Assembly: GCA_963702705.1 (NCBI GenBank)
Contig: CAVPDR010000001.1
Coordinates: forward strand, 100,821 to 164,820
Reading direction: 5' to 3'
Source of the DNA: an uncultured Solirubrobacterales bacterium
GTDB taxonomy: Bacteria > Actinomycetota > Thermoleophilia > Solirubrobacterales > 70-9
DNA: 64,000 nucleotides
Position numbers and translations under genes: made by a program. Each line of letters starts with the position of its first letter. Positions within the stretch are counted from its first letter, which is position 1. A model generated the notes under the pieces. The model made no database searches, had not been told where the DNA came from, and saw only the letters and a program-made list of their open reading frames with translations. This document shows positions 14,954 to 62,772 of the stretch, in pieces.

Positions 14954-15498
14954 GGGAAGAGGTCGGCTGCGGCGGCTCGGAACTCGTCGGGGAGGACACC
15001 CCAGACCTCGCAGTCGTCCGGGGGCGCCGCCTCCCGACGCAGGTGCGCGCGCATCGTCCCCTCATGCTTCCAGCCGAGGCTGGTGACGGTCTTCTTGGCG
15101 ATCTCGTTGCGAGCTGGGATCCGTCCGTAGACCCGGTGCGCGCCGAACTCGTCGAAGGCCTTGGCGATCGTCAGTGCCTCGGCGCGGCGGCCGACCCCCT
15201 TGCCGCGCACGTCGTCGCCGATCAGGGCGCCGAGCTCGGGTGCGGTCTGGCGAAAGAGGCCGTAGAGGGCAGTGAAGCCGACCGGCTCCGCGTAGCCCGC
15301 GACCACGATCGCGTACTTGCGGTCCTCACCCGAACCGTCGATCGCCCGACCCACCCAAGCCTCCGCTTCCTCCAGTGAGAACCCGTCGCGCTGCTCCATC
15401 AGCGAGGCGGTCGCCGCCGCGTTGTTGAACCAGCGGTGCACGGCGGGCACATCGCCGGGCTCAAAGGGCCGCAGTCTCACCTCAGGCCGATCCGTCAT
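14950..15498 (-). CDS. GNAT family N-acetyltransferase (RimJ/RimL-like)
   Basis: VRLRPFEPGDVPAVHRWFNN ... RGKGVGRRAEALTIAKAFDEFGAHRVYGRI. There is a 4-nt overlap with the upstream gene. Confidence 0.8.
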   Translation of the reverse strand: MTDRPEVRLRPFEPGDVPAVHRWFNNAAATASLMEQRDGFSLEEAEAWVGRAIDGSGEDRKYAIVVAGYAEPVGFTALYGLFRQTAPELGALIGDDVRGKGVGRRAEALTIAKAFDEFGAHRVYGRIPARNEIAKKTVTSLGWKHEGTMRAHLRREAAPPDDCEVWGVLPDEFRAAAADLFP

Positions 15499-15530
15499 CC
15501 CGCGAACCCTAAGACCTCGGGCCTCTCAAT

Positions 15531-15583
15531 CCGAACTGCATCAAATTCTCCATCTCCTAGCTTAAGAATTCGATGCAGTTCGG
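15531..15583 (-). terminator. 12-bp-stem hairpin directly after the sugar transferase stop codon
   Basis: CCGAACTGCATC / GATGCAGTTCGG arms with a 29-nt AT-rich loop, abutting the stop codon at 15584. Confidence 0.4.
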
Positions 15584-16147
15584 TCAGTCCGGTGCGAGGC
15601 CGTGGCCGGTGACCAGGAGCCAGAGCGTTTTGAGCAGGATGCGGGCGTCCAGGGCGGCGCTGCGATGGTCGCAGTACCAGAGGTCGAGCTCGATCCGCTC
15701 CTCCCAGGGAATGCCGGCGCGACCCTGGACCTGGGCCCAGCCGGTGATTCCGGGAGGGACGTCATGGCGGCGGTGCTGGCGCGGCGTGTAGTCGATCACT
15801 TGGGCCGGGATGGTCGGGCGGGGGCCGACGATCGCCATCTCGCCGCGCAGGACGTTGACCAGGTTGGGGATCTCGTCGAGCGAGGTGCGGCGTAGGATGC
15901 GGCCGGCCGCGGTGACGCGCGGGTCCTCGCGGGTGACGACGGTGCCGACGCCGACCGGATCGGAGCCGACGGCCATCGTCCGCAGCTTCAGCATCTCGAA
16001 CTCACGGCCCTTCAGCCCAACCCGGCGCTGGCGGTAGATCACTGGTCCGCGGCTGCCGAGCCTGATCGCGATCGCCGCGATCAGCAGCAGCGGCGAGAGC
16101 AGGGCGAGGGCGATGGTGGCGATCAGGATGTCGGCGGCGCGCGGCAT
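15584..16147 (-). CDS. undecaprenyl-phosphate sugar phosphotransferase (small bacterial sugar transferase)
   Basis: GSRGPVIYRQRRVGLKGREFEMLKLRTM ... DEIPNLVNVLRGEMAIVGPRP are canonical motifs. Confidence 0.9.
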   Translation of the reverse strand: MPRAADILIATIALALLSPLLLIAAIAIRLGSRGPVIYRQRRVGLKGREFEMLKLRTMAVGSDPVGVGTVVTREDPRVTAAGRILRRTSLDEIPNLVNVLRGEMAIVGPRPTIPAQVIDYTPRQHRRHDVPPGITGWAQVQGRAGIPWEERIELDLWYCDHRSAALDARILLKTLWLLVTGHGLAPD

Positions 16148-17269
16148 CTACCTGGTTCCCGGCGCCTTCTCCCACGCCGCCGGGGGGCCGTGGCGGAAAC
16201 GGTCCCAGAGGCCAGCCGCGATCGAGAGCGTCGTCATGGCGTAGTAACGGGCGACGCGGAGGGGCCCGAAGCCGAACTGGCCGCCAAGGATCGCGGCGGC
16301 GATCAGCGCCAGCTGGATGCCATAGGTGACGACGTAAACCCAACCCTGGTCTAGTAGGGCGAGGTTGGTCGCGAAAGCGGTCAGGTGGAGGAAGGGCGTG
16401 AGGTAGCGCAACAGGCGGTGGGAGAAGAGCTCAAATGCGTAGAGGGGCGAGTAACCGCGCGGAGAGATCATCGCTTCGCCGACGACGATGTCCCAGATGC
16501 CGGCCATCATCCGGCGCTTGCGGGCGAGCTCTCCGGTCAGCGTCGGCACCATCTTCTCCTCGGCGCGGGCGGCCGGGACGTAGAGCGAGCGCAGCTTGCG
16601 CTTGGCGAGGCGGAAGGGGAAGGAGAGGTCATGGCTGCCGGAAGGCTCCAGCGACAGGTAGGCGGAGGCGCGCACGGCGTAGATCGCGCCGTTGCCGGCG
16701 GTGACCCCGGCCAGCGTCGACTCCATCTTGCGCAGCTTCATCTCGTAGCGCCAGTAGGCGCCCTCGGGGTTGTCGCCGCCAGCGCCGGTGAAGCGGACCT
16801 GGCCGCAGATGTAGCCGACCTTGGCGTCGGCGAAGGGCTCGACCAGGCGGCGCAGGGCGTCGGGGCGCCAGGCGCTGTTGGCGTCGGAGAAGGCGAGGAT
16901 CTCACCCGAGGCCGCCTCGGCAGCGGCGTTCTGGGCGGCAACCTTGCCGCCGCGCGGCAGCTCGAGCACGAGGTCGGCGCCGGCCCCGCGGGCGCGCTCC
17001 GCCGTGGCGTCGGCGGAGCCGTCGGAGGCGACGATCAGCTCGAGCCGCTCGCGGGGGTAGGCGAGCGCCAGCGCGTTGGCGATCTTGGCCTCGATCACCT
17101 CCTCCTCGTCGTAGGCGGCGACGATCAGCGAGACGCGCGGCAGCTCGGCCAGCGGGCGCGGCGGCTTGGCGGGCCGGCGCAGGGCGACGAGCAGGCGCAG
17201 AAAGACCGGGTAACCGAGGTGCGTGTAGACGATCAGCGCAGCGGAAATCCAGAAGATCGCGGCGAGCAT
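16148..17269 (-). CDS. family 2 glycosyltransferase with membrane segments
   Basis: VSLIVAAYDEEEVIEAKI ... LIVASDGSADAT, with N- and C-terminal TM segments. Confidence 0.85.
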   Translation of the reverse strand: MLAAIFWISAALIVYTHLGYPVFLRLLVALRRPAKPPRPLAELPRVSLIVAAYDEEEVIEAKIANALALAYPRERLELIVASDGSADATAERARGAGADLVLELPRGGKVAAQNAAAEAASGEILAFSDANSAWRPDALRRLVEPFADAKVGYICGQVRFTGAGGDNPEGAYWRYEMKLRKMESTLAGVTAGNGAIYAVRASAYLSLEPSGSHDLSFPFRLAKRKLRSLYVPAARAEEKMVPTLTGELARKRRMMAGIWDIVVGEAMISPRGYSPLYAFELFSHRLLRYLTPFLHLTAFATNLALLDQGWVYVVTYGIQLALIAAAILGGQFGFGPLRVARYYAMTTLSIAAGLWDRFRHGPPAAWEKAPGTR

Positions 17270-26652: not shown

Positions 26653-27464
26653 GCTCCGCGGCTGACGGCGGGATTCCGGTAAAGCGCGCGATCGCGCTCG
26701 GTGTCGTGCAGGGACCGGCGGAGCTGCTGCCCGTCTCCAGCTCCGCCCACATCGTCCTCGTCCCCTGGCTCGCCGGCTGGGACTGGGAGGCGGTCGATCC
26801 GGAGGTGCGCAAGAGCTTCGAGGTGGCGCTGCACGCCGGTGCCGCGGCGGCGCTGCTGGTCGGCCAGCGCAAGCTGATCGCCGAAGAGCTGCGCGCCTTC
26901 GACGCCCGCGGCGCAGTCGTCCTCGCCCTCTCCTTCCTGCCGGCCGCCGTGGTCGGCTACAGGTTCGAGCGCCCGATCGAGCGGCGGCTGGGGGGACCGC
27001 GGGCGACAGCCTACGGCCTGCTCGCCGGCGCCGCGGCGATGCTCGCCGGCGACACCAGACCGCAGCTGCGCGGCCGCGGCGAGGCCGGCGCGGCGGATGG
27101 GCTGGCGCTCGGCGTCGCCCAGGCGGCGGCCCTCGCCCCCGGCGTCTCGCGCAACGGCATCACCCTCGCCGCCGCCCGCTGGCGGCGCTTCTCGCGCGAC
27201 CAGGCGAACCTGCTCTCGCGCACGATCGCGCTGCCGATCATCGTCGGCGCCACGGGGCTGAAGGGGGTCCGCCTCAACCGCCGCGGCGTCCCGGCCGAGC
27301 TGCGCCGCTCGCTGGCGATCGGCATCGCTGCCTCCTTCGCCTCGACCCTCGCCTCGCAGCGCTTGATCGGGCTGGTCGAGCGCGATCGGGCGCTTTGGCC
27401 CTACGCGGCCTACAGAGCTGGATTGGCGGCCATTGTGCTGGCTAAGCTGTCCCGCGGACACTAA
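26649..27464 (+). CDS. uppP: undecaprenyl-diphosphate phosphatase
   Basis: ALGVVQGPAELLPVSSSAHIVL ... FEVALHAGAAAALL ... PGVSRNGITLAAA are BacA/UppP motifs. There is no in-frame ATG or GTG upstream of them. A TTG at 26649 overlapping the DedA stop is the best candidate start. Confidence 0.75.
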   Translation: MSSAADGGIPVKRAIALGVVQGPAELLPVSSSAHIVLVPWLAGWDWEAVDPEVRKSFEVALHAGAAAALLVGQRKLIAEELRAFDARGAVVLALSFLPAAVVGYRFERPIERRLGGPRATAYGLLAGAAAMLAGDTRPQLRGRGEAGAADGLALGVAQAAALAPGVSRNGITLAAARWRRFSRDQANLLSRTIALPIIVGATGLKGVRLNRRGVPAELRRSLAIGIAASFASTLASQRLIGLVERDRALWPYAAYRAGLAAIVLAKLSRGH

Positions 27465-27549
27465 CTCCAAATCTTGGAGAAACTTGGAGTTGGCTTGGAG
27501 TTGTGGTAGAACTCCAAATCTTGGAGAAACTTGGAGTTGGCTTGGAGTT
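27463..27549 (+). repeat. two direct copies of a 40-bp unit in the Fic leader
   Basis: AACTCCAAATCTTGGAGAAACTTGGAGTTGGCTTGGAGTT at 27463-27502 and 27510-27549, separated by a 7-nt spacer. Each unit holds one AACTCCAA and three CTTGGAG words. The last GGAG is 5 nt from the Fic ATG. Confidence 0.95.
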
Positions 27550-27552
27550 CCG

Positions 27553-28923
27553 ATGTTCGTAGCGAGAGCACCATCCATCGACGAATTGATCGAGAGCCTC
27601 GGAACCGGGGCCGCACTCGATGCGATGAGGTCCTCGAGCGACACCCTGCCACGCGACCGCTACTTGCACTGGGACAAGCTTCGGCGACTTCCGTCGCCGC
27701 CCGGCCTTTCCAGCGAGCAATGGTGGCTCAAGGTCAAGCTCGCAAGGAGCGACGAACTACGGCAGCTTCCGCTTACAGACCCCAACGGGAGCCCATTCGG
27801 CTATACGTTGCCTGACACGGTTCATCGCCACCTCCACCGCATCGCTCAGCGCTGCAGCGGCGAGGTTGCCATGGACGAGGTCGTCACATCCGAACGGGAG
27901 GCAGGCCAGCGCTTTCTGGTCAACTCGCTAATGGAGGAGGCGATCCGGTCGAGTCAATTGGAGGGAGCGACCACTTCTCGAGTGATTGCCAAGGAGCTGC
28001 TGCGCAGTGGGCGCGAGCCCAAGGATCGCAGCGAGCGAATGATCGCCAACAATTACCGCGCGCTTCAGTTCATGCGGGACGAGATGGGCGAAAAGCTAAG
28101 CCCGGAATCGATCCTTGAACTGCATCGGATCGTCACCGAGGGAACCCTCGACGATCCTTCGGCAGCCGGGCGCCTTCAGCAGCCCGGAGAGAGACGGGTA
28201 GCTGTCTTCGACCGCGACGACGGCGAGCCGATCCACAAGCCGCCGCCCGCTGAACAGCTTCCGGAGAGGATGCGGCTGCTCTGTGAATTCGCCAATGAAG
28301 GAGAAGGCAGTGAGCAGTTCGTGTATCCGGTGGTGCGAGCGATCCTGCTGCACTTCTGGCTCGCTTACGACCATCCCTTCGAGGACGGCAACGGCCGGAC
28401 AGCGAGAATTCTCTTCTTCTGGTTGATGCAGCGACGCGGATACTGGCTCGCCGAATACCTGCCGATCTCGAGGCTGATACGGAGGGCACAATCGCAATAC
28501 GCCCGGGCTTTCGTGGAAACCGAGACTGACGGTGGCGATACGACCTACTTCCTGATCCACCAACTCAAAATCATCGAGCGTTCGATCGACGATCTGCACC
28601 ACTACTTGCAACGAAAGATCGCGGAGGTGCGCAATGTCGAGCAACTGCTGCATCGCGACGACGACCTCAACGGACGGCAGCTCGCCTTGCTCACCGACGC
28701 CGTTCGGCATCCCGAGGGGCTGTACTCGTTCGACAGTCATGCGACAAGTCACCGCGTTTCGCATGAGACAGCGCGCTCCGATCTCAGGCAACTTGTCGAC
28801 CGAGGGTTGCTGGTTCAGCGCCGAAGGGGTCGGATGCACGTCTTCGAGCCGGCGCCCGACATCGAGGAGAGGCTGAAAGAATCCGGTAATGAGCGGAGAC
28901 GCGTACGCAAGGGCGGGGGTTGA
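27553..28923 (+). CDS. Fic family protein (class II, intramolecular inhibitory helix, C-terminal winged-helix-like tail)
   Basis: Fic motif HPFEDGNGRTARILFF. Inhibitory motif SSQLEG of the form (S/T)xxxE(G/N) lies about 130 aa upstream. The C-terminus LNGRQLALL ... SHETARSDLRQLVDRGLL is wHTH-like. Codons are visibly less GC-rich than in neighbours. Confidence 0.85.
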   Translation: MFVARAPSIDELIESLGTGAALDAMRSSSDTLPRDRYLHWDKLRRLPSPPGLSSEQWWLKVKLARSDELRQLPLTDPNGSPFGYTLPDTVHRHLHRIAQRCSGEVAMDEVVTSEREAGQRFLVNSLMEEAIRSSQLEGATTSRVIAKELLRSGREPKDRSERMIANNYRALQFMRDEMGEKLSPESILELHRIVTEGTLDDPSAAGRLQQPGERRVAVFDRDDGEPIHKPPPAEQLPERMRLLCEFANEGEGSEQFVYPVVRAILLHFWLAYDHPFEDGNGRTARILFFWLMQRRGYWLAEYLPISRLIRRAQSQYARAFVETETDGGDTTYFLIHQLKIIERSIDDLHHYLQRKIAEVRNVEQLLHRDDDLNGRQLALLTDAVRHPEGLYSFDSHATSHRVSHETARSDLRQLVDRGLLVQRRRGRMHVFEPAPDIEERLKESGNERRRVRKGGG

Positions 28924-29963: not shown

Positions 29964-31478
29964 ATGGAAGCCCGCTCGAGCAGCGCGATGATCGGCACGG
30001 TTCTCTCCGGCCGCTACCGGCTGGAGGCGAAGCTGGGCAGCGGCGGCATGTCGACCGTCTACCTGGCGCGCGATCAGACACTCGACCGGCAGGTGGCGGT
30101 CAAGGTGATGCACCGCGAGATGTCCGAGCAGGCCGACCAGCTCGAGCGCTTCCGCCAGGAGGCGCGCTCGGTCGCCAAGTTCTCCCACCCCAACGTGGTC
30201 TCGGTGATCGACGCTGGCGAGGACGGCGGCCACCCCTACATCGTCTTCGAGTACATCGAGGGCGAAACGCTGAAGCAGCGCATCAACCGCAATGGCGCGC
30301 TCGAGCCGCAGGAGGCGATCGCCTACGCGATCGAGATCGCCCGCGGCCTCGCGGTCGCCCACGCGCGCAACATGGTTCACCGCGACATCAAGCCGCAGAA
30401 CATCCTGATCGACGCCGAGGGCAGGGCGAAGTTGACCGACTTCGGCATCTCGCGCCAACTCGAGCAGGACGGGATGACCGCGACCGGGCGGGTGCTCGGC
30501 ACCACCGACTACGTCGCCCCCGAGCAGGCGATGGGCCGCAAGGTCGACCCCCGCACCGACATCTACTCGCTCGGCGTCGTCCTCTACGAGATGCTGGTCG
30601 GCCAGGTCCCCTTCGCCGCCGACAGCCAGGTCGGCGTGGCGATGAAGCACGTCAACGAGGAGCTTCCCGACGTGCAGCGCCGTCGCCCCGACGTCTCGGC
30701 CGCGGTCGCGCTGGTGGTCGAGCGGTCGACCGCCAAGGACCCGGCGCAGCGCTATCAGCAGGTGAGCGAGATGATCGACGACCTCTCGACCGCGCTCGAG
30801 GTCGAGGCGGCGCGAGCGGGATCGACCACCGGCGAGGCGACCAGCGTGCTCGACGCGGTTCCTCCCCCAAAGCGCAAGCTCTCGTCGCGGGCCCGCTGGT
30901 CCTGGGTCGCGATCCTCGCGGTGCTCCTCGTCGCCGGCGGGACGCTGCTCGCGGTGCAGCTGATCTCCAGCGGCAAGCTCGGCGGTGGTGGGGCCGAGAA
31001 GGGCAGCGGTAAGGCAATCCAGATCAGCTCGGCGACCGACTACGACCCAGAGGGCGACGGCGAAGAGGTGGGCAGCAAGGTCGGTCTCGCCGTCGACGGC
31101 GATCCGACCGGGACCGCCTGGGAAACCGAGCATTACGAATCGGACACCTTCGCCGGCACCAAGACCGGCCCCGACCCCGGCGTCGGCATCTACGTGACGG
31201 CGGCCTCTCCCGCCAAGCCGACGAAGATGATCGTCCGCACCCCGACGCCGGGCTGGGACGCCGAGGTCTTCGCCGCCCCATCGGGCCCGCCGGAAGCGCT
31301 GTCCGAATGGGGAGAACCGGTCGGCACCGCGGTCGATGCCTCCTCGACGCAGGAGATCGACCTCGACGTCACCGAGCCCGCCACCTACTTCCTGCTCTGG
31401 TTCAACAAAGCCTCGGAAGCCCACGACCAGTTCGGCGGCTATCAAGTCGAGATCAGCGACATCAACCTCTTGCGGTGA
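29964..31478 (+). CDS. Ser/Thr protein kinase with one TM segment and an extracellular discoidin-like domain
   Basis: GSGGMSTVYLARD ... VAVKV ... HRDIKPQNIL ... DFGIS ... TDYVAPEQ. TM segment WSWVAILAVLLVAGGTLLAV. The C-terminus has DGDPTGTAWETEHY. Confidence 0.9.
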   Translation: MEARSSSAMIGTVLSGRYRLEAKLGSGGMSTVYLARDQTLDRQVAVKVMHREMSEQADQLERFRQEARSVAKFSHPNVVSVIDAGEDGGHPYIVFEYIEGETLKQRINRNGALEPQEAIAYAIEIARGLAVAHARNMVHRDIKPQNILIDAEGRAKLTDFGISRQLEQDGMTATGRVLGTTDYVAPEQAMGRKVDPRTDIYSLGVVLYEMLVGQVPFAADSQVGVAMKHVNEELPDVQRRRPDVSAAVALVVERSTAKDPAQRYQQVSEMIDDLSTALEVEAARAGSTTGEATSVLDAVPPPKRKLSSRARWSWVAILAVLLVAGGTLLAVQLISSGKLGGGGAEKGSGKAIQISSATDYDPEGDGEEVGSKVGLAVDGDPTGTAWETEHYESDTFAGTKTGPDPGVGIYVTAASPAKPTKMIVRTPTPGWDAEVFAAPSGPPEALSEWGEPVGTAVDASSTQEIDLDVTEPATYFLLWFNKASEAHDQFGGYQVEISDINLLR

Positions 31479-34417
31479 TGCACACCGGCGGGACTGCAAC
31501 TCAAAGGCTCAACACCTTCCAGGGTTGCTCGAGGATTTTTTCGAAGCAGGGCCGCAGTGGCGCCAGCAAATCCTCGACTTCGGCGGCGGCATCGGCCCGG
31601 GGTTGAGCGGTCAAGCTCTTCGAGGTCATGGAGGGCAGCCAGTCGACCGCCTTGGCTGCATTCCCGCCGGTACCACTCGGGCCGAACCAAGAGCAGATCG
31701 CCGAAGCGGCAGCCGGGCTCCTCGCGATCGACAGGAAGGGCGAGATCCTCGAACAACGTCCCCACGTCGAGCACTCCCCAAGCAACCGATTTCATCGTGA
31801 GGCTAAATCGCGTCGTATTCGCTGCGAGGGTTCCGAACACACCGCAGAGCATCCTCGGCAGCAGAGCGGCAGCTATGCCCTCACTTGCAAGCACGATCGA
31901 GTCAGTTTCCTCGGAGGCCGCGATTTGAGCGGTGGATCCGAGTGTCGAAATTCGCCCAGAGCGCGTCTCAGCTCCGAGGGCGAGGACGGATCTTTCAAGT
32001 GTCCAGCTCCCGGTCCTCTCGAGAACGCCCTCGAAGACAACAACGGACCGCTCGGCATGAACGGTCGCCGGCGCCTGTCCGCCGAGCCGGGCAAAGCTCT
32101 CCTTGATCATCAGGCTTCCTACCGATGCGTCGAATTTGGCAGTGTTGAGGACCAGGGAGCAGCCGAAGCCTCGAAGCGAGCCTACGTGTGACGATTTCAC
32201 GTCCAGAGTGGCCGACGACGCATTGAGCGTGCACGCGTCCAGCGATGACGCTGTCAAGTCGATCTGCGCGGTCGCCCGCTCGGAGTGCAGCTGCTCGATC
32301 GTGGAGGACGCGACGCCCGCGCAGATATCTGACTCGTTCAGTGTCATCTCAACGATGTGAGACTCCCGGATGTCAACCGCCTTCCAGGTCGCATCCCGAA
32401 GCTCAAGTGAGGCAATGGTGCAGTCTGACCAAGCGGAGTCGACCATCCGTGTGCCGGTAAACCCGAGACGGCCGAAACTCGCCTCAAAGATTTCGCCATT
32501 TTTGAGGAGAGGTAGGTCATGGTCCGGTCTGGTGTAGAGAAATGCAACCAGCGCGTTCCTTCTCACTACCCTGTCCAATGGATCGGCCTGATTGAACTTG
32601 TCCCATATCCCCTCACCGACCTCCGGTTGCGTTGGAGCAAACCCTCCGAGGAAGTAGAGGACCTCCCGATCGAGCCACTGGCTCATCAGAGACGGCGTTT
32701 CGCCCAGTGCTTCCCTTAGAACGCGAGCTACAAAAAACTCGCGAAACGATTTATGGACGAATCGGCACCTGCCGTCCTGATCCAGCGTTACGAACGAGCA
32801 GGTCGCGAAGTCGGTGGCGATCTCCTCTCCGGTGAGACCGCTGGCCTCGACCTCTTCTCTTGCGGTGGCGCCGGCCAGGAGCCGCTCGAGCGTCAGGTGG
32901 AAATCGACTTCGAGCGTATTGGCTTCGTACATCTGCACAGCCAGGGCCTCGGCAAGCGTTCGCCGGGCGTGGAGCGTTAGGCCTCCTCGCCGAACAACCC
33001 CCTTGGCCAGGTCAAGGTCGAGCTTTGCCCGCGTGTAAATCTCGTACAGGCCGGATGCTCCGTAACGCGTGTCGGTGTCCTTCGGGTCGAGGCCACCGAT
33101 AATCACCGAGTCGATGATCATCGTCAGGAGCAATGGCCGGGTTGCGAGGTCGGCCAGATCGTAGATCCGATCGATCAGATCCATGAGGTCCTCGGGCGTC
33201 GCGCCTGCCCGTGCCAACTCATCGCGCCGCAGCTCGACCAGCTGCTGCACACGCCTTCGATCCAGTGGCAGCAGCCGCACGAGCTGTGCATCGCGCTTTC
33301 CCAGCGCCCTCCGATCGGCACGGCCGGGACGGCTCTCGCGATGCCGCTCCACCAGTCCGCGTCGCAGGCGGTCGGCTTCGTCGAAGATCTCGCTCTTTGA
33401 CGGCAGCGGCTCGGTCAGATCGGCTTCCTGGTCATTCAGCGTTCGTATCAAGCCATCCAGCTCACCACGCTCTACAAAGTAACTGGGACGGGAAGTGACT
33501 ACGGATGGCGAGCGCGAGCGCAGCACGGCGAGGAGCTCGTGGAAGAGATCGACGCGGCGCGATGGATCGCTACGCTCAACCATCTCGTCAAAGCCATCGA
33601 ACAGAATGTAAAAATGTCCACTTTGAATGCGTTGCCAGAGCAGGTCGGCCGGCGGGTCCCGATAGTACGCATCGCGGAAGCTGCCTCGTAGTAGCGCTGT
33701 AAGGTCCTGGCTTTGTCGAAATTCGCGCAGTGCCACATACAGAGGCACACGCGTGTCTCGACCGGCGAGATAGGCCTTGGCTCGCTCGTACTGAATGGAG
33801 TTGACGAGGGTCGTCTTACCAGCCCCGAAATCGCCCAGGATGAAGAGCGCGTTGGGGGCTTGGTCGGTCAGCTCGCGAGCGCCCATCCATTCCTTGAGGA
33901 TTGCGTCGAGGGTCAAGCCGGATCTTTTTCTGGGAGAAAAGGTTGACCACGAGAGTGGCTCGACCGATAGCGGCAGGTACTGACGGTAGATCGGGGAATT
34001 TTCGTAGTCGGCTACGAATCTCTCGAGTTGATGGCGTACGTCGAGCAAGTGGGCGGCGAGCTGCTCCCATGTCAGTAGTTGAATATGGCCGTGCTTGGCT
34101 GCGGCCTGACGTGCGTGTTGCGTAAAGCCGCTTGAACTCACCATTACCCCCGAGAGGATGTCCGGGCCAGCCTGTTCGCTGATTATGCGCGCTATGAAGT
34201 CGTTGACGAGCTTGATCCCGATCGCTTTTTTTTCGTCCTTGCACTCGACGATGAGTTTGAGTGTGGGGCCGCCCTCAACATGGCGATGGGCAACCAGGTC
34301 GGATTGGTTGCCGTCGAGTTGAAGGTTAGGCGTGACTTGGTACCCGAGCGCCCGGTAGACGTCGGCGACGCGCCGCTCGAATTCTTTGCCCGGCCTCAGA
34401 GATCCGCCCGCCGTCAC
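31442..34417 (-). CDS. STAND NTPase: Mrr-like PD-(D/E)xK nuclease + NACHT + pentapeptide-like repeats
   Basis: Nuclease core GNQSDLVAH...LKLIVECKDEK...SSGFTQHARQAA. Walker A GDFGAGKTT, Walker B YILFDGFDEM, then VVTSRPS and FVHKSFREFFVA. The C-terminal ~330 aa are repetitive. A GTG start at 34417 is proposed because upstream ORF-track residues overlap ddl. The gene is visibly lower in GC. Confidence 0.8.
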   Translation of the reverse strand: MTAGGSLRPGKEFERRVADVYRALGYQVTPNLQLDGNQSDLVAHRHVEGGPTLKLIVECKDEKKAIGIKLVNDFIARIISEQAGPDILSGVMVSSSGFTQHARQAAAKHGHIQLLTWEQLAAHLLDVRHQLERFVADYENSPIYRQYLPLSVEPLSWSTFSPRKRSGLTLDAILKEWMGARELTDQAPNALFILGDFGAGKTTLVNSIQYERAKAYLAGRDTRVPLYVALREFRQSQDLTALLRGSFRDAYYRDPPADLLWQRIQSGHFYILFDGFDEMVERSDPSRRVDLFHELLAVLRSRSPSVVTSRPSYFVERGELDGLIRTLNDQEADLTEPLPSKSEIFDEADRLRRGLVERHRESRPGRADRRALGKRDAQLVRLLPLDRRRVQQLVELRRDELARAGATPEDLMDLIDRIYDLADLATRPLLLTMIIDSVIIGGLDPKDTDTRYGASGLYEIYTRAKLDLDLAKGVVRRGGLTLHARRTLAEALAVQMYEANTLEVDFHLTLERLLAGATAREEVEASGLTGEEIATDFATCSFVTLDQDGRCRFVHKSFREFFVARVLREALGETPSLMSQWLDREVLYFLGGFAPTQPEVGEGIWDKFNQADPLDRVVRRNALVAFLYTRPDHDLPLLKNGEIFEASFGRLGFTGTRMVDSAWSDCTIASLELRDATWKAVDIRESHIVEMTLNESDICAGVASSTIEQLHSERATAQIDLTASSLDACTLNASSATLDVKSSHVGSLRGFGCSLVLNTAKFDASVGSLMIKESFARLGGQAPATVHAERSVVVFEGVLERTGSWTLERSVLALGAETRSGRISTLGSTAQIAASEETDSIVLASEGIAAALLPRMLCGVFGTLAANTTRFSLTMKSVAWGVLDVGTLFEDLALPVDREEPGCRFGDLLLVRPEWYRRECSQGGRLAALHDLEELDRSTPGRCRRRSRGFAGATAALLRKNPRATLEGVEPLSCSPAGVHHRKRLMSLIST

Positions 34418-34481
34418 TTGCGATGTATCGACGCTGATTGGGTCAAACCAACTGGAGCAGTGTAATGCCCCAGCGGGGAAA

Positions 34482-35447
34482 TCAGAAGCGGTGGGTCCGA
34501 GCCCGCTCGTATCGCTCGAGCGCGAGGGCGATGAGACGGTCGCAGAGAGTCGGATAGTCGAGGCCGCTGGCCGCCCAGAGCTTGGCGTAGACGCTGGTCT
34601 CGGTGAAGCCGGGCATCGTGTTGATCTCGTTGACGAGGACGGTGCCGTCGGGCGCGACGAAGAAGTCGCAGCGGGCGAGGCCGGCGCAGCCGCCCAGCGC
34701 GAAGGCGATAGCGGCGAGGTCGCGGATCGCGGCGAGCTGCTCGTCGGGCAGCTGCGCCGGCACGACCAACTCCATGCCGCCGTCGCGGTACTTGGTCTCA
34801 TAGTCGTACCACTCGGCATTGGCCAGGACTTCGCCCGGCTGGGAGGCCTCGACCTCCTCGTTGCCCAGCAGCGAGCACTCGACCTCGCGGCCTGCGGCAG
34901 CGGCCTCGACGATCACCCGCGGGTCGTGACGGCGAGCCAGGTCGACGGCCGCGTCGAGATCGGCGAGCGACTCGACTTTGCTGATGCCGACGCTGGAGCC
35001 CAGCCGCGAGGGCTTGACCCAGAGCGGCAGCCCCATCGCCTCGCAGCGCCGGCGCCAGCCCGGCTCGCCGGCGGCGACGAAGTCGACCTGCGGGACTCCG
35101 GCCTGGGCGAAGAGCCGCTTCAGCGTCAGCTTGTCCATGCAGACAGCCGAGGAGAGGACGTCGGAGCCGACGTAGGGAAGGTCGAGCCACTCGAACAGGC
35201 CCTGCACGCTGCCGTCCTCGCCGAAGGGGCCGTGCAGAGCGGGGAAGGCGACGTCGGCGTCAAGCAGGCCGCCACCCGGGGTCAACTCGACCGGGGCGCC
35301 GGCATGGCTCCAGGCGCCGTCGCGGGAGATCCCCACCCGCAACACCTCGTGCCCCGCTTCCTCCAGGCCACCCGCAACGGCCTCGCCGGAGCGCAACGAG
35401 ACGTCGTGCTCAGAGGAGCGGCCGCCGCTGAGCACGACGACCCTCAT
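34482..35447 (-). CDS. ddl: D-alanine--D-alanine ligase
   Basis: MRVVVLSGGRSSEHDVSLRSG ... FPALHGPFGEDGSVQG ... EINTMPGFTETS. The ATG overlaps the pknB stop (ATGA). Confidence 0.9.
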   Translation of the reverse strand: MRVVVLSGGRSSEHDVSLRSGEAVAGGLEEAGHEVLRVGISRDGAWSHAGAPVELTPGGGLLDADVAFPALHGPFGEDGSVQGLFEWLDLPYVGSDVLSSAVCMDKLTLKRLFAQAGVPQVDFVAAGEPGWRRRCEAMGLPLWVKPSRLGSSVGISKVESLADLDAAVDLARRHDPRVIVEAAAAGREVECSLLGNEEVEASQPGEVLANAEWYDYETKYRDGGMELVVPAQLPDEQLAAIRDLAAIAFALGGCAGLARCDFFVAPDGTVLVNEINTMPGFTETSVYAKLWAASGLDYPTLCDRLIALALERYERARTHRF

Positions 35448-46700: not shown

Positions 46701-52913
<6,213 letters not shown>

Positions 52914-55581: not shown

Positions 55582-55749
55582 GTGGTGATTGCTTTCTTGA
55601 GTTGGATTAGGGCTTGTGGAAAAGCTCGAAAGCGACGCAGACCTGGCTTCAGCTGGCGCCTGGGCGGCTGTGGAGCGGTCTGTGGGAAGGCATTGATTCT
55701 TACAGCGCCGTCGGCCGTCAGGCCGAGCCTGTGGGTCCGGTGTGGATAG
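55582..55749. promoter_or_regulatory. candidate oriC core: DnaA-box cluster in the dnaA-dnaN spacer
   Basis: Five same-orientation TGTGG-type 9-mers. Their reverse complements are TTTTCCACA (55615-55623), CGCTCCACA (55669-55677), CTTCCCACA (55681-55689), GGACCCACA (55730-55738) and CTATCCACA (55741-55749). An AT-richer stretch lies at 55586-55612. Confidence 0.6.
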
Positions 55750-57046
55750 CGCCGCGCAACTCCGCAACGCGCTGGGCAAGGGCGGCGTCTTCGCCGAAGC
55801 GCGCTTCGACCCGCCTGATCGAGTTGAGCACGGTGGAGTGATCGCGCCCACCGTAAAGGCGACCGATTTGCGGCAGCGATAGATCGGTCAGCTCGCGGGT
55901 GAGGTAGATCGCGACCTGACGGGCGCGCAACGGGAGGGCCGAGCGGGTCGAGCCGACCAGCTCGGCCCGGGAGATGCCGAAGTCGGCGCAGACGCGGCTC
56001 TGTATTTCCTCGACCGGCGTCGATTCGTCTCTTCTCCTCCCTTTTGGGATTACCGCGTCGATCAGCTCGGCGCTGAGTGGCTTGGCGGTCAGCGAGGCGT
56101 GGGCGAGGACGCGGGTGAGCCCGCCGTGTAGCTGCCGCACGTTGACGTCGATCCGCTCGGCGAGAGCGTCGAGCACGTCGCCCTCGGTATCGACGCCGGC
56201 CTCGCGCACGAGCCGGCGCAGGACGGTCAGCCGAGTCGCCAGATTGGGCGGCTCGACGGCGACGGTCAGGCCCCACTCGAAGCGGTCTCGCAGGCGCGAC
56301 TCGAGGGTGGAGAGCTCGCTGGGAATGCGGTCGGCGGAGAGGACGAGCTGGCTGCCGCCTTCGTAGAGGGCGTTGAAGGTGTGGAAAAACTCATCCTCGG
56401 TGTGGCGCTTGCCCTCGAGGAACTGGACGTCGTCGACCAGCAGCACGTCGAGGTCACGGTAGCGGCGCTTGAAGGCCTCGGCGCCGGTGCTGCGTAGGGC
56501 GGCGACAAACTCGTTGGTGAAGCACTCGGCGGTTGTGTAGCGGACGCCGAGGCCAGCAGCGTTCGCCGCCAGGTAGTTGGCGATCGCGACGAGCAGGTGG
56601 GTCTTGCCCAGCCCCGGCGGCCCGTGGAGGAAGAGCGGGTTGTACGCCTCCGAAGGCGCCTCGGCGACGGCGAGCGCCGCCGCGTGGGCCGCGCGGTTGC
56701 CTTCGCCGATCACAAAGCGGTCGAAGGTGTAGTTGGCGTTGAGATCGATACCGGGGTCGCAGTCGGAACCGGACTCGGGGCCGTCGCCGACATCGCCGAT
56801 TCGCACCTCGGTCAGACTGGACCCAGCTCCGATGAGCGCCTCGCGGATCAGGCCCGTGTAGCGCCGCTCTGTCCAGGCTCGAATGCCTGCGGGCGCGGCG
56901 AGATAGAGAACGCCGGCCTGGGCGCCGACGACCTTCAGCGGTTCCAGCCAGAGCTGGAACGTCGATGGCGGCAGAGCCGCCCGCAGTCTCTCTTGGGCAT
57001 CCCGCCAGAGGGAGTCGAGGTCATGTTTGGGAGGGTCATCGGGCAC
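55718..57046 (-). CDS. dnaA: chromosomal replication initiator protein DnaA
   Basis: LFLHGPPGLGKTHLL, VLLVDDVQFL, and C-terminal DNA-binding region RQVAIYLTRELTDLSLPQIGRLYGGRDHSTVLNSIRRV. Confidence 0.95.
   Translation of the reverse strand: MPDDPPKHDLDSLWRDAQERLRAALPPSTFQLWLEPLKVVGAQAGVLYLAAPAGIRAWTERRYTGLIREALIGAGSSLTEVRIGDVGDGPESGSDCDPGIDLNANYTFDRFVIGEGNRAAHAAALAVAEAPSEAYNPLFLHGPPGLGKTHLLVAIANYLAANAAGLGVRYTTAECFTNEFVAALRSTGAEAFKRRYRDLDVLLVDDVQFLEGKRHTEDEFFHTFNALYEGGSQLVLSADRIPSELSTLESRLRDRFEWGLTVAVEPPNLATRLTVLRRLVREAGVDTEGDVLDALAERIDVNVRQLHGGLTRVLAHASLTAKPLSAELIDAVIPKGRRRDESTPVEEIQSRVCADFGISRAELVGSTRSALPLRARQVAIYLTRELTDLSLPQIGRLYGGRDHSTVLNSIRRVEARFGEDAALAQRVAELRGAIHTGPTGSA

Positions 57047-62698: not shown

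Positions 62699-62772
<74 letters not shown>

Follow-up and report, generated by a model that had tools for sequence, protein, structure and literature searches.

The 64,000-nucleotide stretch analyzed here (the window; positions 100,821 to 164,820 of contig CAVPDR010000001.1, assembly GCA_963702705.1, from an uncultured Solirubrobacterales bacterium) raises the question of what a single large minus-strand gene, encoding a predicted nuclease, a NACHT NTPase and a repeat array, is doing inside a conserved cell-division block. We propose, with a probability of roughly 70%, that it encodes a stand-alone, horizontally acquired nuclease immune protein related to the NLRs (bNACHT type), and we regard it as a candidate antiphage gene. 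An earlier inspection of the letters alone (the sequence-only reading) had described a gene of about 990 codons with three parts in order, and this description holds: the open reading frame (ORF) encodes 991 residues, and all of the motifs quoted are found at verified coordinates.

A search of 5.8 billion proteins returned a 100%-identical protein of 971 residues (P0001) and ~60 full-length homologues of 950–1010 residues at 36–52% identity. The domain assignments draw on Pfam scans, on conservation among 58 homologues and on an AlphaFold2 model of P0001 made with 58 homologues, for which the predicted local distance difference test score (pLDDT) is 86.8 and the predicted template modeling score (pTM) is 0.77. 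The resulting order is tripartite, with Mrr_cat at residues 10–122, NACHT at residues 191–313 and beyond, and a solenoid at residues 637–815. The elements of the first two parts are the following.

34052..34390, minus strand: Mrr-type PD-(D/E)xK nuclease domain, residues 10–122 (Pfam Mrr_cat, conservation, Foldseek match to 1y88)
34298–34300, minus strand: catalytic D40 of the nuclease domain
34238–34246, minus strand: E58-C59-K60 of the nuclease domain
32528..33862, minus strand: NACHT module, residues ~186–630, from the nucleotide-binding domain through the last helical domain (Pfam, invariant residues, Foldseek)
33809–33835, minus strand: Walker A, GDFGAGKTT
33581–33610, minus strand: Walker B, YILFDGFDEM
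33485–33496, minus strand: sensor 1, TSRP
32744–32761, minus strand: winged-helix motif FVHKSF, with H555

The PD-(D/E)xK nuclease and the NACHT NTPase named by the sequence-only reading are both borne out. Mrr_cat covers residues 10–122 with 52 bits (cut-off 21, E = 9.1e-14), and NACHT (PF05729) covers residues 191–313 with 45.6 bits (cut-off 26.7, E = 8.9e-12); the latter is also annotated on nearly all of the homologues in precomputed Pfam assignments. Within the nuclease, G36, Q38, D40 and C59 are invariant among the 58 homologues, and E58 and K60, which complete the E-C-K motif, are kept in at least 90% of them. The invariant residues of the switch are G198, G200, K201, T202 and T203 in Walker A, D274, D277 and E278 in Walker B (DGFDE), R310 in sensor 1 (TSRP), and F553 together with the winged-helix histidine, H555. 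Because these catalytic and switch residues are conserved across the 58 sequences, the nuclease and the switch both look functional. The model places an alpha/beta nuclease domain at residues ~10–125, and this domain matches the Mrr-like protein AF1548 (1y88) with E = 3e-3 in Foldseek. For the NACHT module, the top 31 Foldseek matches are NOD2, NLRP and NLRC4 structures; the best PDB match is NOD2 (E = 3.2e-10), followed by NLRP3, NLRC4, NLRP9 and similar structures; NOD2, NLRP3 and NLRC4 have E-values of 3e-10 to 1e-8.

The rest of the protein comprises two further elements.

31973..32509, minus strand: pentapeptide-like beta-solenoid, the presumed sensor, residues 637–815, ~180 residues (model, Foldseek, profile)
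31504..31897, minus strand: family-specific C-terminal alpha/beta plus helical domain, residues 841–971, whose final 38 residues are out of frame in the window

The sequence-only reading had assigned ~330 C-terminal residues to short degenerate repeats. The repeat assignment stands for residues 637–815, but the last ~130 residues are a conserved non-repeat domain, separate from the repeats and marked by the motifs GVFG, WGV and GxRxGxLLLV and by a terminal Trp. In the model, the solenoid has ~35 pentapeptide units in ~9 coils (pLDDT 94–98), with regular strands of ~8 residues and 2-residue turns between them. A separate model of residues 625–971 (pLDDT 88.8, pTM 0.87) supports the earlier judgment that the array is not of the TPR, WD40 or LRR type: every one of its top 29 PDB matches in Foldseek is a pentapeptide-repeat protein or a designed solenoid based on one, and the pentapeptide matches include HetL, EfsQnr, QnrB1, AlbG, MfpA and Rfr23. 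These matches are weak (E = 0.013–0.7, template modeling score to the target 0.3–0.55, high root mean square deviation). A family profile compared with PDB sequences matched EfsQnr (8e-5), AlbG (1e-4), a Clostridium pentapeptide protein (2.6e-4) and MfpA (9e-4) over positions 636–775. Read in fives, the solenoid has a hydrophobic residue at the center of each unit and a small residue two positions earlier (SAWSD, CTIAS, ATWKA, SHIVE, SSLDA, CTLNA), and hydrophobic autocorrelation is maximal at lags of 5 (0.16) and 10 (0.24), with z = 3.0 for this protein relative to shuffled sequences. The sequence-only reading had suggested a Pfam search for all three parts; the nuclease and NACHT families exceed their cut-offs, but Pentapeptide_4 falls below its own (residues 639–698, 16.8 bits versus 38, E = 0.0075), and Pentapeptide is annotated on only three homologues in the precomputed assignments. 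Sequence and model together suggest that 'pentapeptide-like' is the right label for the array despite its failing the curated Pfam threshold.

Among 1.84 billion representatives, a profile of the solenoid plus C-terminal domain matched 56 proteins at E≤1e-10, 39 of which also reach E≤1e-30. With few exceptions these are family members of 950–1010 residues or shorter proteins that are probably fragments. Weaker matches cover the solenoid part only and lie in ordinary pentapeptide proteins. As judged from these searches, the family is small (~40–55 clusters at 50% identity) and the C-terminal module is family-specific. Foldseek comparison of the C-terminal model with viral structures gave only weak matches to pentapeptide or tail-fibre-like solenoids, none with E≤0.001. 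The mean pairwise identities within the family differ from part to part.

Nuclease: 0.54
Nucleotide-binding domain: 0.65
Winged-helix region: 0.56
Solenoid: 0.26, the fastest-evolving region
C-terminal domain: 0.31

A conserved effector and switch combined with a fast-diverging C-terminus is the pattern that would be expected of an immune receptor.

The 3' end of the gene requires a correction that affects how the window copy is interpreted.

31442..34417, minus strand: ORF as it stands in the window, 991 residues plus stop, GTG start at 34417, last 58 residues out of frame relative to the family
31501..34417, minus strand: corrected coding sequence, with base 31616 omitted, encoding 971 residues identical to P0001, stop codon at 31501–31503
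31616, minus strand: extra base (coding-strand G, GAAGA[G]CTTGACC) that a 99.94% identical public contig does not have
34418..34481, minus strand: spacer of 64 nt from the ddl stop to the GTG start

The GTG at 34417 is the first start codon past the stop of ddl, which occupies 34482..35447, and the 64-nt gap noted earlier is confirmed. The longest ORF in this frame, which extends to 34819 (1125 residues), was rejected as the gene; it overlaps ddl in another frame. Past '...LAALHDLE', the window protein no longer follows P0001 or the family consensus in the alignment. P0001 is encoded by a 3224-bp contig of the Logan assembly of ERR11563127, which covers positions 34603..31379 of the window, includes the ends of ddl and of the kinase gene, and differs by a single substitution and a single gap. 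With the extra base at 31616, the final 38 codons are out of frame, and in their place the window copy encodes 58 unrelated residues and extends into the kinase gene. The corrected protein ends in ...EKILEQPWKVLSL followed by the stop codon and carries the family-conserved terminal Trp; the corrected gene stops at 31501, 22 nt short of where the kinase gene stops (31478). The sequence-only reading reported a 37-nt overlap between the two genes; it is present in the letters of the window but is the product of the 1-nt indel at 31616.

Were the extra base real, the window copy would be decaying or inactive, having lost 38 conserved residues, and its sensor would be disabled or deregulated. The gap between the window and the public contig is exactly this indel, the family C-terminus with its conserved Trp is missing from the window frame, and the extra base lies outside any homopolymer run. 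However, the essential gyrA gene of the same window is split into five successive ORF pieces in alternating frames on the minus strand (50096–50467, 49545–50156, 48374–49894, 48085–48852 and 46701–48404), and these at least four frameshifts in an essential gene indicate that the assembly contains indel errors. The independent assembly, ddl and kinase flanks included, has an intact gene, and the remainder of the window copy is free of stops and further indels. Because gyrA carries at least four frameshifts, the indel at 31616 is probably an assembly error, and we consider a decaying copy unlikely. As a separate observation, gyrA (window 46701–50467, minus strand) also contains an intein, with its N-junction at ...PPAAMRY|CVSGDTRV and its C-junction at ...FVSHN|TEARLARL.

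How the gene came to lie at this locus can be addressed from its neighbors and from related genomes. Two further genes serve as landmarks.

29964..31478: Ser/Thr kinase, convergent with the NACHT gene
55718..57046: dnaA, with dnaN and gyrB alongside

The neighborhood is the actinobacterial oriC-proximal cell-division block, in the order FhaA, PP2C, RodA/FtsW, PbpA, PknB (with three PASTA domains), ddl, the NACHT gene, the convergent kinase and an AIR-synthase-like gene. The position of dnaA puts oriC ~21–23 kb from the NACHT gene, in agreement with the earlier estimate of about 20 kb. A ddl scan over one genome per GTDB species places the organism itself as an uncultured member of the Solirubrobacterales (Thermoleophilia), with 85% ddl identity to its best relative; 80 ddl-centered loci from other genomes were compared. 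The block is syntenic across 45 related Solirubrobacterales loci, none of which contains a NACHT homologue, and tblastn found no P0001 homologue at E≤0.01 in any of the 80 ddl loci. The ddl and kinase stops are <300 nt apart in 22 relatives and only 10–40 nt apart in 18 of these 22, and the closest relative (L002, with a kinase and a PknB that are both 92% identical) is among those with an empty junction. The gene has a GC content of 0.61 and a GC content at third codon positions (GC3) of 0.70, versus a host GC3 of 0.883 ± 0.046 over 25 genes (z = −3.9), which substantiates the excess of A/T-ending codons that had been noted. The sequence-only reading took the gene to be inserted at the kinase–ddl junction, and this is strongly supported by the absence of a homologue from all 80 loci and by the empty junctions of the closest relatives; with its foreign GC3, the gene is a recent horizontal insert.

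The same evidence bears on the idea that the gene is a housekeeping or regulatory part of the PknB/cell-wall cluster. Its position would suit such a role, since it follows ddl at a distance of 64 nt, in the same orientation, within the FhaA-PP2C-RodA-PbpA-PknB-ddl block. However, the homologue is absent from the 45 Solirubrobacterales loci and from all 80 ddl loci, its composition is foreign, and its homologues lie in unrelated contexts. The empty junctions in relatives effectively refute this explanation, to which we assign next to no probability.

The location is also less odd than the sequence-only reading had supposed. The junction is filled in 17 of 39 relatives with 1.2–8.2 kb of varied cargo, which includes a low-GC two-gene cassette, a PIN toxin, a sugar-transferase fusion, desaturase/reductase genes, a peroxiredoxin and a hydrolase (ORFs in these inserts were counted only where they had high GC3 or Pfam support). 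The ddl/kinase junction is a variable site in this clade. We rejected the notion that it is a dedicated defense hotspot; its cargo includes the desaturase/reductase, peroxiredoxin and hydrolase genes.

Several side observations concern this region. The low-GC (0.62) two-gene cassette occupies the junction in four relatives (L006, at 15011–17221, L008, L011 and L048) and encodes a ~160-residue membrane protein and a ~570-residue protein, neither of which has a Pfam match; the latter has a weak CorA-like C-terminal PADLOC match (E = 5e-7). In L006, the junction also holds the PIN toxin and a 965-residue protein with a bacterial sugar-transferase domain. In five other loci (L010, L015, L025, L028 and L030), the 10 kb downstream of ddl yielded no convergent kinase, the only match being to the paralogous PknB, and these loci have a larger insert or a rearrangement at the ddl/kinase junction. 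The Ddl protein of the window ends in ...ARTHRF (34482–34520, minus strand), whereas that of L002 and other relatives ends in ...RS(F/Y)EF, and the insertion may have remodeled the 3' end of ddl. On the plus strand, at 27433–28923, lies a gene for a 496-residue Fic-domain protein (Pfam Fic, E = 8e-17; PADLOC SoFic, E = 3.3e-44, profile positions 49–352 of 361). With a GC3 of 0.71 versus 0.88 for the host, it is a second defense-type, compositionally foreign single gene, ~2.5 kb from the NACHT gene; of 45 relatives, only ~12 have it beside the AIR-synthase-like gene, with identities of 63–77%. The only RNA gene in the 64-kb window is a tRNA-Ile(GAT) at 62699–62772; there was no other Rfam match at the gathering threshold.

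We inspected the genomic contexts of 10 homologues. The gene is solitary in all 10, and no neighbor is conserved across them. One homologue (P0003, L082 1–1584) lies directly downstream of DndD, DndE and a cysteine desulfurase and upstream of TcpC/TcpE/VirB4-like conjugation genes. Another (P0050, L096 16252–20627) is carried by an integrative conjugative element that also encodes TraG, an integrase and a TrwC relaxase, and a CBASS operon (SMODS, HORMA, AAA, SAVED) lies ~3 kb from the homologue. A third is near a TIR-TPR protein and a NACHT-like gene, and one is found among toxin–antitoxin pairs, a 506-residue Fic protein, a UvrD helicase and a Ymh protein. One adjoins an integrase remnant and a giant RHS toxin, and for another an integrase fragment lies ~9 kb away. 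Altogether, Dnd, CBASS, TIR-STAND, toxin–antitoxin or conjugation genes are present in four of the 10 contexts. In all six loci examined for composition, the GC content of the homologue gene is 5–13 points below that of its flanks, and the homologue hosts are all of high GC content (0.66–0.72). A cluster look-up for homologue taxonomy returned one name, Thermoleophilaceae. A family-profile scan of IMG/VR found no family member on viral contigs; it returned four distant relatives at 20–24% identity that match over the nuclease and nucleotide-binding domain only. Fic genes also occur near two of the homologues (L085 and L097).

These contexts are relevant to two further explanations. In the first, the protein would belong to a conflict system that is not primarily antiphage, either an NLR for self/non-self recognition or programmed cell death, comparable to the fungal Het proteins or to systems that have been proposed in multicellular bacteria, or an addiction or exclusion module of a mobile element. 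Several homologues do reside on conjugative or integrative elements, a distant relative is encoded on a conjugative plasmid, and proteins that combine an NTPase, an effector and repeats have been tied to apoptosis-like processes in actinobacteria and cyanobacteria (PMC7159879, PMC8195603). In the window, however, the gene stands alone in the chromosome without mobile-element genes, and all of the experimentally tested nuclease–NACHT proteins found in the literature searched act against phage. We regard this explanation as quite improbable.

In the second, the protein would be an NTP-dependent, type IV-like restriction enzyme in which the Mrr domain itself recognizes and cuts modified or foreign DNA, NACHT regulates it, and the acidic solenoid gates the nuclease by mimicking DNA within the molecule. 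The type IV enzyme Mrr has Mrr_cat as its catalytic domain, and the homologue that abuts a Dnd phosphorothioation cluster is suggestive in this regard; yet a modification system is present in just one of the 10 contexts, and the Pfam scan found no DNA-modification reader domain. NACHT, moreover, is an oligomerization switch and not a translocase. The solenoid is more acidic than the rest of the protein, with a net charge of −4.3 per 100 residues versus about −1.5 in the other domains, although such moderate acidity is not decisive for DNA mimicry, and its structural neighbors EfsQnr and MfpA bind gyrase. Its fast divergence nevertheless fits recognition of a protein ligand better than it fits a fixed pseudo-substrate, and we judge a type IV-like enzyme to be very improbable.

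The immune-protein reading suggests a mechanism, which we base on the bNACHT25/32 and Avs precedents. At rest, the protein would be an ADP-bound, autoinhibited monomer. An infection cue, most likely a phage protein, would bind the solenoid and the conserved C-terminal domain, and this binding would free the NACHT switch for nucleotide exchange and oligomerization. The oligomer would juxtapose the Mrr-type nuclease domains and thereby permit indiscriminate DNA cutting, which would halt phage replication and probably kill or arrest the cell (abortive infection). The trigger, the oligomerization, the cleavage of DNA and the phenotype are steps that we infer.

Several observations weigh against a functional antiphage gene of this kind. 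The NA-iREase1 family ('inactive REase') scores 25.6 bits, just below its Pfam cut-off of 27, although an active nuclease is favored by the intact D...ExK motif. A real frameshift at 31616 would leave the window copy without the conserved C-terminus. No integrase or target-site duplication was found around the insert, and flanking repeats occur only at chance level. Counts of promoters and terminators are no higher than in shuffled sequence, and the 64-nt spacer contains no consensus promoter; the gene may be transcribed by read-through from the pknB-ddl transcript. The junction cargo in relatives is a mixture of metabolic genes, a PIN toxin and unknowns, which is not that of a dedicated defense hotspot, and four of the 10 homologue contexts are ordinary housekeeping or metabolic neighborhoods. 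Finally, the protein has no system-level match in PADLOC or NCBIfam.

The choice of a pentapeptide-like fold for the presumed sensor allows a more specific proposal. The free-standing pentapeptide proteins MfpA, Qnr and AlbG bind gyrase by imitating B-form DNA. Pentapeptide proteins may inhibit DNA-binding proteins (PMC7159879). The solenoid is acidic, and proteins described as gyrase inhibitors are among its structural relatives. By analogy, the solenoid could be a DNA-mimicking bait for a phage DNA-binding protein, for which a phage polymerase, nuclease, topoisomerase or anti-restriction factor would be candidates, or it could plug the protein's own Mrr nuclease until NACHT fires. We think this proposal unlikely to be correct. 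If it were true, sensing by DNA mimicry would be undescribed for STAND/NLR proteins in the literature searched, in which the sensors are TPR-like, WD40, LRR or FGE-sulfatase-like (PMC13581612).

The broader interest of the family lies in its combination of parts. In prokaryotes, NLR-related proteins are the counterparts of the inflammasome sensors of animals, and we know of little experimental work on defense systems in the Solirubrobacterales. Recognition of infection is understood for few sensor types, most of them TPR-like (PMC13581612). By joining a well-understood effector (an Mrr-type DNase) and switch (NACHT) to an uncharacterized sensor, this family would offer a clean test case for sensing by a pentapeptide-like solenoid. 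The empty junction in the closest relatives and the 3-kb single-gene insert in the window form a natural before-and-after pair that documents a very recent acquisition in an uncultured soil lineage. The picture of how such systems are built stays as it is known.

Comparison with known systems places the protein near, but not within, the families described so far. The sequence-only reading had likened it to the Avs and bNACHT proteins; the effector–NTPase–sensor order supports this likeness, but there is no assignment to a system, and the PADLOC search that it suggested yielded no named one. Only the Mrr domain matches PADLOC models (PDC-S02 and ZorD), and a match to HyoA is negligible.

The nearest experimental precedents are bNACHT25 and bNACHT32 of clade 6, PD-(D/E)xK–NACHT proteins in which D48 of the nuclease is required for defense and which degrade DNA on activation (PMC12169576). 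The D48A mutation abolishes both defense and DNA degradation by bNACHT25/32, and mutation of the winged-helix His hyperactivates bNACHT25 (Kibby et al., preprint 10.1101/2022.07.19.500537; PMC12169576). Like these proteins, ours combines an N-terminal Mrr-like PD-(D/E)xK DNase with a following NACHT module in one polypeptide, its catalytic Asp is similarly placed (D40 versus D48), and the winged-helix His whose mutation hyperactivates bNACHT25 is conserved. In bNACHT25/32, however, the C-terminus is helical (NCH1) and host DnaJ mediates sensing (PMC12169576), whereas here it is predicted to be a beta-solenoid followed by a family-specific alpha/beta domain, which sets the protein outside clade 6. 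No PADLOC bNACHT model matches the protein, and the distinction is drawn from published descriptions. The hosts of bNACHT25/32 are Enterobacteria, as opposed to an uncultured member of the Solirubrobacterales.

The Avs proteins with nuclease effectors, such as Avs4 and Avs7, share the order of effector, STAND NTPase and sensor, and their targets induce oligomerization on binding and thereby activate the nuclease (PMC13581612). Avs4 (PDB 8dgf) is also a significant structural match to the NACHT gene product (Foldseek, E = 6.5e-7). Avs proteins sense through TPR-like alpha-repeats and have NTPases of other STAND clades, whereas the sensor here is predicted not to be alpha-helical and the best fold matches are NACHT-clade NLRs; no Avs model is among the PADLOC matches at E≤1.

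The C-terminal array resembles the pentapeptide-repeat proteins HetL (3du1), EfsQnr (2w7z), QnrB1, AlbG (2xt2) and MfpA (2bm5) in its predicted beta-solenoid, whose fold matches are to such proteins alone, in its hydrophobic period of five and in its significant profile similarity. It differs from them in being fused to NACHT rather than free-standing and in its sub-cut-off Pfam score, and we know of no link to gyrase.

The same domain order (Mrr_cat, NACHT, pentapeptide-like) recurs in the Rhizobium protein WP_167377947.1, encoded on plasmid pRgalIE4872c, which is 28% identical over 774 residues (E = 2e-67). That alignment ends inside the solenoid, so that the family-specific C-terminal domain is not common to the two, and the Rhizobium protein is of 910 residues and from another phylum. 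On this conjugative plasmid of Rhizobium gallicum (L090 5552–10733), the gene for the 910-residue Mrr_cat-NACHT-pentapeptide-like protein adjoins one for a 762-residue Mrr_cat-nSTAND3 protein (PADLOC candidate PDC-S73, E = 2e-135), and each of the two is annotated as 'restriction endonuclease'. RefSeq labels the Rhizobium relatives 'restriction endonuclease' or 'NACHT domain-containing protein'.

Pentapeptide repeats have been listed among the C-terminal repeat types of bNACHT proteins (10.1101/2022.07.19.500537) and appear as C-terminal repeats in earlier comparative-genomic work (PMC7159879, PMC8195603). TPR-like, WD40 and FGE-sulfatase-like sensors are covered in a 2026 survey of sensing by prokaryotic STAND proteins, whose main text contains no pentapeptide or solenoid sensors (PMC13581612); we found no experimental characterization of this sensor class in the literature searched. 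The REase–NACHT architecture is thus already known and expected by specialists, and the pentapeptide-like sensor type is the experimentally uncharacterized part.

At a greater distance, the animal NLRs NOD2, NLRP3 and NLRC4 share the fold of the NACHT module and provide its best Foldseek matches, but at only 10–15% identity, and they have LRR sensors and CARD/PYD adaptor effectors in place of a nuclease. On the features compared, the protein follows the logic of the Avs and bNACHT systems while standing outside any validated named family.

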